Below the pieces are notes generated by a model. It did not search any database. It saw only the letters and a list, made by a program, of their open reading frames with translations, and was not told the origin of the DNA. A DNA stretch of 50,298 nt from Escherichia phage JMPW2. The stretch lies in sequence record NC_041873.1; one strand, written 5' to 3'. The translations under genes and the position numbers were made by a program. Positions 3,840-50,134 of the stretch are shown here, piece by piece. The stretch's first letter is position 1. Every line of letters starts with the position of its first letter.

Positions 3840-4048
3840 ATGGCTACACGACTCACTCAGTAGCAGATTTACGACAAGGCCTCACGCCTTCGTGAATCAC
3901 TTCGAGGTCTGACACCAAACGACCGCATTGAGATTATCGGGCACGCATTGCACGAACTCGCGTCTCAAGACGTAATCTATCATTCATGCGGAAATAAATT
4001 CTGGAACGTGACATTCGAGGTAAAGAAAGATGAGCAAAACTCATAAGT
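3840..4048 (+). pseudogene. hypothetical gene with in-frame TAG at 3861..3863 (codon 8)
   Basis: ATG 3840 preceded by box, stem-loop and CCAATCAGAGGAAT leader; after the TAG the frame stays open 61 codons with no ATG, ending 18 nt into the next gene. Confidence 0.4.
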
Positions 4049-20502: not shown

Positions 20503-23376
20503 ATGGTTGATAAGGTAGCAGGTCTGTCGCTTGACGTTGATGTGTCAACAGTGCAGCGCGCCGTCAAGTCACTGAAAGAGTTTTCAAAGGCCAACGACCA
20601 GGCCGCTGATTCTATGGGTTCTTTAATCAATGAGTCAGAGGTTGCAAAACAGAAGGCCAAAGAACACGCTGAACAACTCAGGCGTCAGAGAAAAGAGTAT
20701 GAGGCCGTGGAGAAGGCAATCGATCCTACAGTATCAAAAATGGAAAGGTTGAAGATTGCATCTCAGCAGCTTGATAAACTCTGGCAGCAGGGAGTCGTTC
20801 CAGATGAGACATTTTTCCGTTTGGGTGAAATGCTGGATCTGCAAAACGCAAAACTTGCTCTCAGCCGGGCTATGCTTACGGAAGAAGGTCAGGCGGCATT
20901 GCAGGAAGCGAAAGCAAAAGAGCAGGCGGCAGCACGAAGCAAGGCGTTCATGGATGCCCTGAATGGTCAAGTTAACGCGATCGGCAAGACTCATGCTGAA
21001 TTGATGGAACTGAAAGCGGCTGAGCTTGGTTTATCGAAAGAAGCAGCACCACTAATCGCAAAACTTAAAGATCAAGGCCGGGCTATGAATGCAGCAGGTA
21101 TTAGCGCCGGGGAATACAGGCAGGCAATGCGAATGCTTCCTGCACAGATTACCGACGTCGTTACATCTCTTGCATCCGGCATGCCAGTTTGGATGGTTGC
21201 CATCCAGCAAGGCGGTCAAATCAAGGACTCGTTCGGCGGGATCAGTAATACGTTTAAAGTGTTGCTGAGTTATATTAATCCAGTCACAGCAGGGGTTGGC
21301 GTTCTCGTTGGCTCGTTAGGTCTTCTGGCGAAAGCTGGTTATGACTCTTACAAGTCAATAACTGATATTCAGAATGCGCTTATTGAGACTGGCGGTTATG
21401 CAGGTGTTACGGCTGAAGAGCTTGATTCAGTGTCTAAAAAGATCGCACAGACAAGCAACTCAACCATTGGGAGTATTCGCGATATTGTAACGGAGTTGGC
21501 GAGTTCTGGTAAGTACACCCGCGAGCAGATCCAGAACATCACTAAGGCTACCGCAGAGTGGTCAGCGTCAACAGGAAAATCAGCAAGCCAAATTATTTCT
21601 GAGTTCGACAAAATCGCAAGCGATCCGGTAAAAGGCCTGAAGAAGTTAAACGAGCAATATAATTTCCTTGAAAAAGGGCAACTTACCTATATCGATACAT
21701 TAAGCCGGACGAAAGGAGAAACTGAGGCAGTATCAGAGGCTACCAAACTATTCGCAGACGTAATGGAAAAGCGAATGAAGTCGATCGCGGATAACGCTAC
21801 TCCTCTGGAAAAGATGTGGAGCGATATTAAACAATGGGCTTCGGACGCGTGGGGATGGGTTGGTGATCATACACTCGGGGCGCTAAACCTGATTGTCGAC
21901 GTTGTTCAGGGTACAGTGATTCAGGTTAAAATGATTCTTGCGAAGGGTGATGAGTACATCTCAAACTTTATCGCCTCAGCCATAAAGGCAACTCAGTCAC
22001 TACCTGGAATGAGTGATTTCGGCGCTGATGTGCTGAAGGAGCAGGAGAACATCGTAAAAAGTTCTCGCGACAACTACGACCAGTTGGCTTCAGAGCTTGA
22101 TGCTATTAACGCTCGCGTAGAAAAAGGCGAGATGGGATACGTTGAAGCGATGAAGCAGCGTCGAACTCTTGAAAAGCAGTACAGTGAGGAAACTAGGGAG
22201 GCAATAAGGAAAGAAGCAGAAGAGATCGAGAAGCGAAACCGAGAAAGAAATAAGCAGTCGAAAATTGTACGCTCACCGACAGAGCAATTCGACAAGGAGT
22301 TAATTTCACTCAAGGCTCAACTTAAGGTATTGCAGGAGCATAAGGAGATCGGTCAAAAACTTTCCGCGCAGAGAAAGGCGCTGTTTACTACCGAGGCTAC
22401 GATTGCTGTTCTTCGTGAAGCCAGCTCTAAGCGTCAGTTGTCTGCGGAAGAAAAAGCGTTGCTGGCAAGTCAGGAGAGAGTTATTGAGCTTGCGAAACAG
22501 AAGGCCGAGATTGGCGATCAGATTGTTAAGCAACAACAGTTGAATGATCTTACCGATAAATCTCTGAAGTTTGTCAATGAGATGACGGCAGCTACAGAAC
22601 AGCTAAACGCGTCTCGAGGGATGAGCACCCGAGAAATGGAAAGGCAAGCTGAGTTGGCTAAGATCACTACTGATTATATTAATGCAGGTGGCAGCGAAGG
22701 AGATGAAAAACTCCAGAACATGATCAAGGCACAAAATGATTACTATGCTGCGGAAGATGCCAAGCGTTCTGACTGGTTAGCAGGTGCTGAAAGTGCATTT
22801 GCAGATTACGGCGATTCTGCAATGGATATGTACGGCAATGTGTATGATATCGCGTCAAGTTCACTTAACGGAATGAGTGACATGATGACCCAATTCCTGA
22901 CTACAGGTAAGGCAAATTTTGAGGACTTTGCGAAAAACATCATTAGCATGATTATCAAGATGATTGCTCAAATGGTAATCTTCAATACGATCTCAGGCAT
23001 GATGGGCGGTAAGACGTGGAGCTTTGCTGGAGGGGTGTCGCCTGGTGCTTCTGCGGTATCACAGGCAACTCCTACGCCTGCCGTCTCTGGTTTTAGGTCT
23101 TTATCTTCAGGCGTCGCTGTTACCTCGCTTGCTGCCGCTGCGGGTAGTGTTGCAACATCTGGATTTAACGCATCTAAATCCGCACCGAAGGCAGTGAACC
23201 AATCAGCAGGCGGGACGGTCGTTGATGTTAGGGGTATGGAGGTTAAAGTTGACAACGGTTCAGATCCGAGAGGAATTTCTCAGGGCGTAGAAATGATGTT
23301 CAAAAAAATGATTCGAGAGTCTTGTTCACAGGGCGGAGAGGTTTACAATTACATTCAGGAAAAAACAGGAGGCTAA
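20503..23376 (+). CDS. tail tape measure protein
   Basis: 957 aa, coiled-coil rich, hydrophobic segment near C-terminus, directly after chaperones. Confidence 0.85.
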
Positions 23377-31235: not shown

Positions 31236-32350
31236 ATGTTCCAGGTGTTCACATCAAGTCAGCTTTCTAATGACGAGTATCATAGCAACGAAGGTTGGGC
31301 GGCAGAGTATGTAAGCGGTTCTAGCCTTGCAGAAATTTATCAGACTTGCCCGGCTAACTGGAGATTCAAGAAGAATGAGACAACGAAGGCGCTGGAGTTT
31401 GGTACTCAGTCGCATACCAACTTTGAGAGCCGAGATCTGTTTACTGCAACGTATGCACGTTGTCCGGCTCCGTCAGAGTTCAAGGATCTGATTACGTCAC
31501 AAGCCGCACTGGCTGCAAAATTAAAATCTTTCGGCCTGAAAGGTACATCCGGTAAGCAGTACCCGGACCTCATCAAGATGATGGTTGATTGCGGTGAAGA
31601 GCTAAACGTCCAATATCTGATCGAGTTGATTGCGGAAGCAGAGGCGCGCTCTGAAGGAAAGAAATTGGTTGACGCTGACAAATACGACGCTTGCATGAAG
31701 ATGAGAGCAATCCTTGAACAAAATCCTGATCACGAAGCGTGCATCAACAGTGAAACGGCGCAGCGTGAGATTTCAATCTTCGGTGAGATATCCGGCGTCA
31801 AGGTTAAGGTTCGACTTGACCATCTGGACTACAAAGAGAATGTTCCAGGTCGTGTCCTGACTGGTTATGATGAGAATGGAGATCCGGTATTCGAAGATGT
31901 TATTTTCCCTGAAGCACTGATGAGAATGGAGATCCGGTATTCGAAGATGTTATTTTCCCTGAAGCACTGATTATCACTGACTTCAAAACAACAATGAGCG
32001 CCAACCCGTTAGAGTTCCCGAGACTGGCATACAATCACGGGTATTATCTGAAAATGGCCTTGCAGCATGATCTGCTACGACGCGCAATCCAGGCTGGCGC
32101 TTTTGAAGGCAACTTCCCGGAATATATCCCGATCGTAGTTCGATTGCTGGCTCAGGAGAAAAAAGAGCCTTACATCGCACTTGCTTACCGTATGACTATG
32201 GAGCAAATCAGGATCGGTCGTAGCCAGTATGTTAGCGTAGTCCACACTTACAAGGCTTGCTCTGAAATGGATGTTTGGCCTGGGTACGCTGGCGACGCAA
32301 GCGAGATTGAACTTGAAACGCCATCATGGGTGCGTTACCAAAATAAGTAA
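31236..32350 (+). pseudogene. PD-(D/E)XK recombination exonuclease, frameshifted by 50-bp tandem duplication
   Basis: 31871..31920 and 31921..31970 are identical; removing one copy fuses ORFs 31236..31970 and 31994..32350 in frame and restores ...FPEALIITDFKTT... Confidence 0.6.
31871..31970 (+). repeat. perfect 50-bp direct tandem duplication (2 copies)
   Basis: tgagaatggagatccggtattcgaagatgttattttccctgaagcactga repeated exactly. Confidence 0.95.
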
Positions 32351-38778: not shown

Positions 38779-39191
38779 TTACAGACAAAGGTGATTATTT
38801 AGAATTTTACGAGAGAGATCCAAGCGACACTCGAAAGGAGGACGCTCATCAGGTGGATTGTGTATCCTGGCTGAAATACAATTTTCCTCACCTTCTATTT
38901 TGGCACACTGTCAATGAAGGTGAAAAAACAATCACATCGGCGCTCAGGGATGAGCAGGCCGGATTACTTAAAGGCGTGTCAGACTTCGTTATCCTGATTG
39001 GTGTTAACTCACGATACCCGTTTGCAGCAATCGAACTTAAGCGGGTTAATAAGTCAGGCAAAGGAAAGGCGTCACCAGTCAGCGACAAGCAAAGGGAATT
39101 TCTCCAAAAGGTCCGGGAGCGTGGCGGCTTCTCTGCCGTCGCATACGGATTCGGGCAATTCAAGATCGCAATTTACGAAATGATGAAATAG
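38775..39191 (+). CDS. VRR-NUC domain nuclease
   Basis: VDCVSWL...DFVILIG...AAIELKRV resembles the VRR-NUC fold pattern; ATGA overlap with helicase. Confidence 0.55.
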   Translation: MITDKGDYLEFYERDPSDTRKEDAHQVDCVSWLKYNFPHLLFWHTVNEGEKTITSALRDEQAGLLKGVSDFVILIGVNSRYPFAAIELKRVNKSGKGKASPVSDKQREFLQKVRERGGFSAVAYGFGQFKIAIYEMMK

Positions 39192-39207
39192 CACTTTTTG
39201 TTAAAAC
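39187..39207 (+). promoter_or_regulatory. palindromic box upstream of dam
   Basis: aatagcactttttgttaaaac. Confidence 0.5.
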
Positions 39208-39258
39208 TGCCGGAATGGAATCTGGCATTATTATCTCACCAACACTAGAGGACTAAAA

Positions 39259-39972
39259 ATGAAAGACTTTAATGATATCGAAACTATCGACTTTGCTGAA
39301 ACTGGTTGCTCATTCACTCGCGAAGCAATAGCGTTTGGCGGTTATTATCAGGCACTAAAAACTCCAACATGCAAAGAGATTTCAGGCCGTCGATATAAGG
39401 GAACCAATACGCCGGATGTTGTTCGTGATTTATGGTCAACCCCGCGCGAGGTTATTGCGTACCTTGAGGGGCGTTATGGAAAATACGATCTCGACGCTGC
39501 GGCAAGCGAAGAAAATAAAGTTTGCGAGAAGTTTTATTCTCAGGAAACAAACTGATTAAAACGTTGGTGGGGTAAAAACAAGCATGTATGGTTAAACCCT
39601 CCTTATAGTCGACCTGATATATTCGTCAAGAAGGCGATCGAGCAAATGGAGCACAATAATCAGATTGATATTCTGTTGCCTGCCGATAATTCTACAGCGT
39701 GGTTTACTGAGGCGCGACAGCACGCGGCTGAAATCATCTGGATTGAAGCTGACTTGACTGAGGATATTGACGGCAACGAGTATGCTCGATCCGGACGACT
39801 GGCGTTTATATCCGGTGAAACCGGAAAGGCCGTAGATGGTAATAACAAAGGTTCGGTAATTTTTATCATGCGCGAACTTAAAGATGGTGAGACGCAGCAA
39901 ACTCACTATATCCCAATCACAAGCATTTGCCCTTCGGTGAAAAACAAGCGCGCAAAAGTGAGGAAAGTATGA
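39259..39972 (+). pseudogene. dam: phage Dam-type N6-adenine methyltransferase interrupted by in-frame TGA at 39553..39555
   Basis: Same frame either side of the TGA: upstream LWSTPREVIAYLEGRYGKYDLDAAAS, downstream WLNPPYS (motif IV); track ORFs 39259..39555 and 39646..39972. Confidence 0.7.
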
Positions 39973-40220
39973 TGAACGAGAAAATGATTCCGGTTAAGTT
40001 AACTGATCAAGGTTTATGGCTGCTTTATCGAGCTACGTGCTGCGAGATTATGGAGCGAAACGGATTGACTAATGATGTTATTGGTTGCGATCTGTGGGAG
40101 TTCACTAGTTCTCTTGATATGTCTTTCGATGAGATAAAAAATGAATACATAGAGAATTGGCCTTCAATCATACAGAGAGACGTAGAGGAACTTAAAGCTG
40201 ATATGATCGTTCAGCACTAA
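39969..40220 (+). CDS. hypothetical protein
   Basis: Internal ATG of track ORF 39927..40220 with SD gaggaaag. Confidence 0.5.
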   Translation: MMNEKMIPVKLTDQGLWLLYRATCCEIMERNGLTNDVIGCDLWEFTSSLDMSFDEIKNEYIENWPSIIQRDVEELKADMIVQH

Positions 40221-40254
40221 TTGCTAAAACTACCCGGCGAAAGTCGGGTATAGT
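40211..40254 (+). promoter_or_regulatory. palindromic box plus stem-loop
   Basis: tcagcactaattgctaaaac; hairpin tacccg...cgggta then TATAGT. Confidence 0.55.
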
Positions 40255-49447: not shown

Positions 49448-50134
49448 TTAGATAGCTTTAAAAAATCCCCTGGGTGATAGAGATCGTATCAGCTTCGTTT
49501 TGGCAGACTTGCCGCCCAGCTTGTTTTGCTGTGCAGAGTACCCGTCAGGCAGGCTTACAGGTTTTCTCTCGGGCATGACAAAATCGTCAGAGGTCCACAG
49601 ACAAGTTTTCTTCGGGTAAGCATCGCGCGGCGCAATATACATCGGGAACCAGGGGTGCGCGTCATCCTCAGGAAGATAGCCGCCGTACTCCCAGGGATTG
49701 AAGGAGTGATTTGGTTTTCTCCACGCAGACGACAGGACGCTCACCGGATTCTCAATGATGTAAGTCACACCAAGCTCCTTACCAATGTTCGCAGCTATCC
49801 GAGCGGTGGCAACAGCCTTCTCCTGGAATAACGGATCACGTTCACGCTTACTGGCAAAGTGACGAGCACCACTAACAGCCAGGTCAGTGCATGGAGGGAA
49901 AGCCATAATAAAATCCGGCTTGCCATACACACCCGCGATCGCGTCACGTTCGAACTTCTCATCAATAAAGACGTTCACATACTCAATGTTCGGATGCTCC
50001 ACCCTGGCGTTGTACTTTGCATAATCTCCGTGATCGGCCCCGTCAAAGTTGAAGCACATCACCTTATGACCTTGCTTTGCCAGTTCATGACCAGCAAGAC
50101 CGGAACCGTCGAATAGTGACCAAATTAACTTCAT
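49448..50134 (-). CDS. C5-cytosine DNA methyltransferase (Dcm-like)
   Basis: Motif I LFDGSG, motif IV FPPCTDLAVSG, ENP(V)-type motif YIIENPVS; conserved leader upstream. Confidence 0.7.
   Translation of the reverse strand: MKLIWSLFDGSGLAGHELAKQGHKVMCFNFDGADHGDYAKYNARVEHPNIEYVNVFIDEKFERDAIAGVYGKPDFIMAFPPCTDLAVSGARHFASKRERDPLFQEKAVATARIAANIGKELGVTYIIENPVSVLSSAWRKPNHSFNPWEYGGYLPEDDAHPWFPMYIAPRDAYPKKTCLWTSDDFVMPERKPVSLPDGYSAQQNKLGGKSAKTKLIRSLSPRGFFKAI

Follow-up and report, generated by a model that had tools for sequence, protein, structure and literature searches.

The dam gene of Escherichia phage JMPW2 appears to be a T1-type GATC N6-adenine methyltransferase gene that was inactivated very recently by a nonsense mutation of a single base, a reading to which we assign a probability of about 70%. 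The window, i.e. the whole stretch of DNA analysed, comprised the 50,298 nucleotides of NC_041873.1; JMPW2 was represented by one deposited sequence, KU194205, of 50,298 bp. An alignment with the dam genes of phages IME167 and phi2013 showed one difference in 714 bases, a C to A exchange at 39555 which converts TGC into TGA. The reading frame is interrupted at this codon, and the catalytic motif NPPY, situated beyond it, is contained in neither of the two open reading frames that remain.

DNA, the list of open reading frames and translation agreed that these two frames, as described in the initial annotation, are in phase and separated by this TGA as sole internal stop (Table 1). When codon 99 was replaced by a sense codon, the translated frame matched the Pfam family PF05869 (Dam) far beyond chance, with an E-value of 3.5e-67; the score was 225.7 bits (cut-off 28.1), and the match extended over positions 2-165 of the 169 in the profile. 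Each half matched this profile on its own, but profile positions 52-84, including NPPY, were found in neither half. The Dam hallmarks previously noticed in a product of about 237 aa could be located by translation at residues 58-62 (LWSTP), 77-83 (DLDAAAS) and 113-116 (NPPY, within NPPYS), the last of them 14 codons past codon 99. Among 35 homologues from Drexlerviridae, N113 and P114 were invariant and P115 and Y116 at least 90% conserved. The gene order of JMPW2, helicase, VRR-NUC, dam and a small overlapping gene, corresponds to the conserved synteny of T1-type Dam.

The upstream region had been described as holding an intact box and ribosome-binding site. The latter was indeed present as the sequence GAGGA in front of the dam start codon, and T1 has a ribosome-binding site annotated at the corresponding position of its record. 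What was meant by a box had been left undefined, but the intergenic sequence from 39155 onwards is base for base that of phages with an intact gene, so that whatever signals it contains are unaltered. A promoter scan returned matches that were no commoner than in shuffled sequences. GC-rich hairpins followed by T-rich tails, terminator-like in appearance, were observed in intergenic sequence at 39208..39227, 5' of dam, and at 40231..40250, 3' of the gene for an 83-aa protein; the RefSeq record of T1, NC_005833.1, carries an annotated terminator somewhere under its 1,051-bp match to the dam region.

Table 1. Features of the dam locus of JMPW2, in positions of the window.
Feature	Position	Strand	Remarks
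Whole T1-type dam reading frame	39259..39972	+	237 codons with one break; translation, PF05869 match, 713 of 714 bases identical to dam of IME167 and phi2013
N-terminal open reading frame, 98 aa	39259..39555	+	GenBank ALT58180.1, 'Dam methylase'; holds only LWSTP and DLDAAAS; PF05869 positions 2-51 of 169
Premature TGA (opal), codon 99	39553..39555	+	Ancestral TGC (Cys), C to A at 39555; next base T, giving UGA-U
DLDAAAS codons, conserved motif 5' of the stop	39487..39507	+	D77, D79, A80, A81 and A82 invariant
NPPY codons, catalytic motif IV of N6-adenine methyltransferases	39595..39606	+	3' of the stop and 5' of any in-frame start; in neither open reading frame
C-terminal open reading frame from Met130, 108 aa	39646..39972	+	GenBank ALT58181.1, 'DNA N-6-adenine-methyltransferase'; PF05869 positions 85-165 of 169
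Shine-Dalgarno sequence GAGGA	39248..39252	+	6 nt 5' of the dam ATG
Gene for an 83-aa protein 3' of dam	39969..40220	+	ATG overlaps the dam stop (ATGA); own GAGGA at 39960..39964
8-bp direct repeat ACAAGCAT, left copy	39578..39585	+	Right copy at 39919..39926; the two copies mark the ends of a 341-bp deletion found in two further Tunavirus contigs
Mosaic patch, 882 bp	39155..40036	+	Identical to the JMPW1-species phages phi2013 and IME167 save 39555; flanks match vB_Henu5_2

The ancestral codon was the same in every comparison made. The alignment to T1 Dam and its relatives that had been proposed for identifying the original codon gave TGC, i.e. Cys99, in T1 as well as in IME167, phi2013 and JMPW1, and Cys99 was invariant in the 35 Drexlerviridae homologues, which are 62-97% identical. 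All ten contigs that encode an identical VRR-NUC neighbour carried an intact Dam of 237 aa with TGC; in one of them, from Logan SRR27422725, the dam allele is the same and differs only at 39555. A 33-mer bearing the TGA occurred in IMG/VR in the JMPW2 genome only, and no other carrier of the allele was found in IMG/VR or among the neighbour-matched contigs. Singleton differences in the clade of JMPW2 often consist of C to A or G to T changes, which speaks for a real mutation. In the wider family, matches to Dam came from 1,112 phage records, 778 of them with a single match spanning 80% or more of the protein, and the 120 cluster representatives of Dam homologues among the matches listed have 221-250 aa, compared with the split into 98 and 108 aa in JMPW2.

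The surroundings of the lesion also gave an indication of its age. Overall, the JMPW2 genome is only 90-97% identical to phi2013, IME167 or vB_Henu5_2. Around dam, however, we observed a recombinant patch of 882 bp with a clear mosaic boundary, embedded in a backbone that is nearest to vB_Henu5_2 and SH2. Since this patch is identical to its counterparts save for position 39555, amid flanks that match vB_Henu5_2, the mutation is younger than a recent recombination event.

As regards the protein, genes for T1-type Dam consist of an uninterrupted open reading frame of about 233-250 codons, and the DLDAAAS and NPPY motifs are carried by one polypeptide; in JMPW2 no frame of that length is present, and the TGA at codon 99 parts the two motifs. 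In an AlphaFold model with a mean pLDDT of 72.9, the confident core extended approximately over residues 109-230, all of them past the stop. A Foldseek search with this model returned weak matches only (best E-value 0.027), mostly to SAM-dependent (adenine) methyltransferases, and a sequence search for a solved structure of the Dam family found none. No in-frame ATG, GTG or TTG is present between the TGA and Met130, so that re-initiation cannot restore NPPY. The predicted product of 98 aa cannot be a methyltransferase, and the 108-aa frame is a remnant and not an independent gene. By sequence, motifs and synteny the gene is an orthologue of T1 Dam; with NPPY in no open reading frame, however, it falls outside T1-type Dam as a single polypeptide, and the most fitting term for it is a dam pseudogene or nonsense allele.

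The following course of events would be in line with these data. Translation would begin as usual at 39259 and would be ended by RF2 at codon 99, releasing a 98-residue fragment in which the DLDAAAS region is present while NPPY and the whole ordered core are absent. The gene would be effectively null, since NPPY is not recoverable by re-initiation. The phage should stay viable since dam is dispensable in T1-like phages, and methylation of its 226 GATC sites would be left to the Dam of the host and would remain incomplete. Host range and anti-restriction may be affected as well, as the initial annotation had suggested. The gene for the 83-aa protein may in addition lose its translational coupling to dam. 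The data show the lesion, its ancestral state, its uniqueness and the loss of the catalytic motif; we infer that the mutation resides in the phage stock and not just in the deposited sequence, and that methylation of the phage DNA is reduced.

The main rival to a real loss-of-function mutation is an error of the consensus: the TGA might stem from base calling or from a minority variant called as consensus, while the phage itself would carry TGC and encode an unbroken, active Dam. According to the genome announcement, JMPW2 was isolated from 'contaminated experiment samples' and sequenced on an Ion Torrent PGM at about 1,900-fold coverage, with assembly by Newbler 2.9; the announcement makes no mention of dam and describes no validation (PMC4919409). 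Platform and assembler, used without a described validation, count in favor of an error, as do two other peculiarities of the same record, a perfect 50-bp tandem duplication in an exonuclease gene, which resembles an untrimmed contig join, and a second singleton nonsense codon, an amber in a small open reading frame. The TGA variant was furthermore seen in no other sequence. The coverage, on the other hand, argues against a miscall, and an artefact at a contig join is uninformative on per-base accuracy. Typical Ion Torrent errors are homopolymer indels, whereas here a C within CTGCTT is substituted by A. In favor of an error, again, a dam null is expected to be less fit: given the 40% burst cost of the published T1 dam deletion on Dam+ hosts, it should be selected against, unless a bottleneck during plaque purification fixed it. 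For a real mutation it can be said that mildly deleterious alleles can become fixed by such purification, and that viable dam nulls are known, engineered in T1 and natural in the form of a 341-bp deletion. We therefore regard an error of the consensus as unlikely, though as an explanation to be taken seriously.

The two peculiarities of the record deserve a description of their own. The perfect tandem duplication (50 bp, 2.1 copies, 100% match) lies at 31868..31971, within a RecE-like exonuclease gene starting at 31236, and has no counterpart in phi2013. The resulting frameshift splits the gene at approximately residue 229; despite its resemblance to an untrimmed Newbler contig join, it could be real. 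The amber codon, TAG at 3861..3863, lies in an open reading frame of 68 codons (3840..4046) that is conserved in JMPW1, phi2013 and Henu5_2, where Trp8 is found instead (TGG to TAG). The record of JMPW1 gives E. coli JM109 as host, a strain that carries the supE44 amber suppressor; such a suppressor could mask the lesion at 3861..3863 there.

Another question is whether the TGA, if real, is always obeyed. The initial annotation had left two options, a dam gene inactivated by nonsense mutation or expression by UGA read-through. The first of these is supported by the ancestral TGC, the single C to A exchange, the cysteine in all relatives examined and the lack of NPPY in both frames. The second would turn the allele into a hypomorph: Trp-tRNA(Trp), or rarely Cys-tRNA, would decode the UGA with low efficiency in K-12 hosts and some full-length Dam would methylate a useful fraction of the GATC sites. 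UGA read-through in E. coli indeed reflects competition between Trp-tRNA(Trp) and RF2 (PMC10570021), the frame 3' of the stop is wholly intact, and for a catalytic enzyme a small amount could matter. The context of the stop is UGA-U, however, and a U at position +4 is reported to reduce read-through (PMC5289835). The 68 nt from the TGA onwards fold at -9 kcal/mol compared with -11.3 kcal/mol for shuffled sequences (z +0.89), i.e. no better than chance. Since the stop is absent from all relatives, nothing was selected to promote its read-through, and the tryptophan inserted would stand at an invariant cysteine. Even an efficient host Dam falls behind T1 replication. A useful contribution of read-through thus seems quite improbable to us; trace activity aside, expression by this route is disfavoured, and nothing suggests that it is designed or substantial.

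The comparison with programmed systems pointed in the same direction. The A1 protein of Q-beta is a product of programmed UGA read-through, its stop is conserved and its extension is functional. Likewise, the JMPW2 locus shows an in-frame UGA followed by an open frame in a phage of E. coli, but here the stop is a singleton in a poor context and the allele is otherwise identical to intact ones. Conservation of the stop at its position was lacking (all relatives have TGC for Cys), and neither a leaky context nor a stimulatory structure was found around it.

Deliberate decoding of the TGA, be it as selenocysteine in place of cysteine, by a suppressor tRNA or an altered code, or by splitting the enzyme into a two-piece methyltransferase, was considered as well. 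Selenoproteins are classically recognised by a TGA that aligns with a cysteine of homologues, and GenBank names both halves as methyltransferase genes. Selenocysteine was rejected nevertheless: a search for a SECIS-like hairpin found none, the matches to Rfam did not rise above noise, the folding of the RNA 3' of the TGA is not more stable than that of shuffled sequences, and the flanks are identical to those of TGC alleles, so that no decoding element has evolved. A suppressor tRNA or an altered code was rejected since the genome holds no tRNA genes and TGA serves as an ordinary terminator, closing 17 of the 67 long open reading frames, dam itself included. Re-initiation and a two-piece enzyme were dismissed because residues 99-129, with NPPY, belong to neither frame and no in-frame start codon lies between the stop and Met130. 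Taken together, the probability of purposeful decoding is practically negligible.

A nonsense-inactivated dam is also plausible in the light of what is known from T1. T1 Dam (M.T1; AAP49979.1 / YP_003925.1; PF05869) shares with the JMPW2 gene the order of the locus, the 237 codons, about 92% nucleotide identity and the motifs LWSTP, DLDAAAS and NPPY; it differs in the TGC at codon 99, whereas the product predicted for JMPW2 ends at residue 98, before NPPY. An older entry for the T1 methyltransferase, AAA87390.1 (M.T1), has 217 aa and is devoid of 20 residues (KKAIEQMEHNNQIDMLLPAD) of the genome-derived protein of 237 aa, probably an old sequencing or cloning artefact. The T1 enzyme makes G6mATC, as seen by DpnI/MboI digestion, where T1 DNA from a dam-negative host stays DpnI-sensitive (PMC10470545). 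A CRISPR-made deletion of T1 dam, CC20, is viable, with a burst size that falls from about 52 to about 32 (approximately 60%) even on Dam+ hosts, and its DNA is methylated only partly by the host Dam (PMC10470545). The viability of this engineered deletion makes a natural null plausible. CC20 is thus a T1-type phage without a functional Dam of its own and with partly methylated GATC, which is the phenotype expected for JMPW2; it is, however, a designed deletion with a measured phenotype, whereas the allele of JMPW2 is a spontaneous nonsense point mutation, and its phenotype is predicted. JMPW2 forms plaques normally and has been grown routinely on K-12 hosts in later studies.

GATC is not strongly avoided in JMPW2: its sites correspond to 1.18 times the expectation from base composition and to 0.73 times a Markov expectation. 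CTAG was strongly depleted, with 26 sites or 0.14 times the base-composition expectation.

Natural losses of the gene were encountered in close relatives, too. In two other Tunavirus contigs, an out-of-frame deletion of 341 bp between copies of the direct repeat ACAAGCAT has removed NPPY and the core of Dam, so that residues 1-109 run on into the reading frame of the next gene downstream. The carriers are L007 (3001..3660; GCA_047627575.1, contig DBFGMZ010000027) and L008 (960..1580; ENA ERZ25890603, NODE_29933); L007 has in addition lost the dam start codon (ATG to ATT). These alleles resemble JMPW2 as independent inactivations of dam in which NPPY and the C-terminal core are gone, but they arose by a repeat-flanked deletion instead of a nonsense substitution.

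JMPW1, which comes from the same laboratory as JMPW2, has a dam gene (L009, 39386..40099) with the substitutions E174K and C224F, the latter at an invariant cysteine, both private with respect to phi2013, IME167 and JMPW2. They account for 2 of the 17 JMPW1-specific substitutions genome-wide, while dam makes up 1.4% of the genome. JMPW1 is also devoid of 167 bp (phi2013 22797..22963) in the gene of a minor tail protein. The stop at C99 in JMPW2, the two changes in JMPW1 and the two deletion contigs would be compatible with a recurrent relaxation of, or selection against, the phage Dam in laboratory settings. That its loss or weakening is recurrently favored or freely tolerated in Tunavirus of laboratory and industrial E. 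coli is a tentative idea which we consider rather improbable; were it correct, it would suggest that GATC hypermethylation is costly or that a host defence senses methylation.

The interruption has left its trace in the databases. GenBank and RefSeq list dam as two coding sequences, ALT58180.1/YP_009594187.1 (98 aa) and ALT58181.1/YP_009594188.1 (108 aa). The split is thus already visible in public annotation as two mis-called genes, yet it is undiscussed; the two annotated 'methyltransferase' genes are one broken gene, fragments of which spread into protein databases. A second 'putative site specific DNA methylase' is encoded on the minus strand at 49448..50134; it contains the sequence PPCTDLAVSG, ends 6 codons before its counterpart in phi2013 (TAA in place of an Ala codon) and gave no Pfam match.

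In conclusion, there is nothing mechanistically new in this locus, which most likely is an ordinary, recent knockout of a well-known and dispensable phage gene, and its biological significance is small. It is of value for correcting the annotation and as a warning to laboratories that pair JMPW2 with T1 in work on modification-dependent defence; both phages serve to test DNA-modification-based defence systems (Ssp). If Dam is truly absent, JMPW2 DNA would carry less G6mATC than that of T1, and the phage would represent either a natural dam-null control or an unrecognised confounder. All in all, JMPW2 and the deletion alleles indicate that the otherwise widely conserved Dam of Drexlerviridae is occasionally lost in nature.
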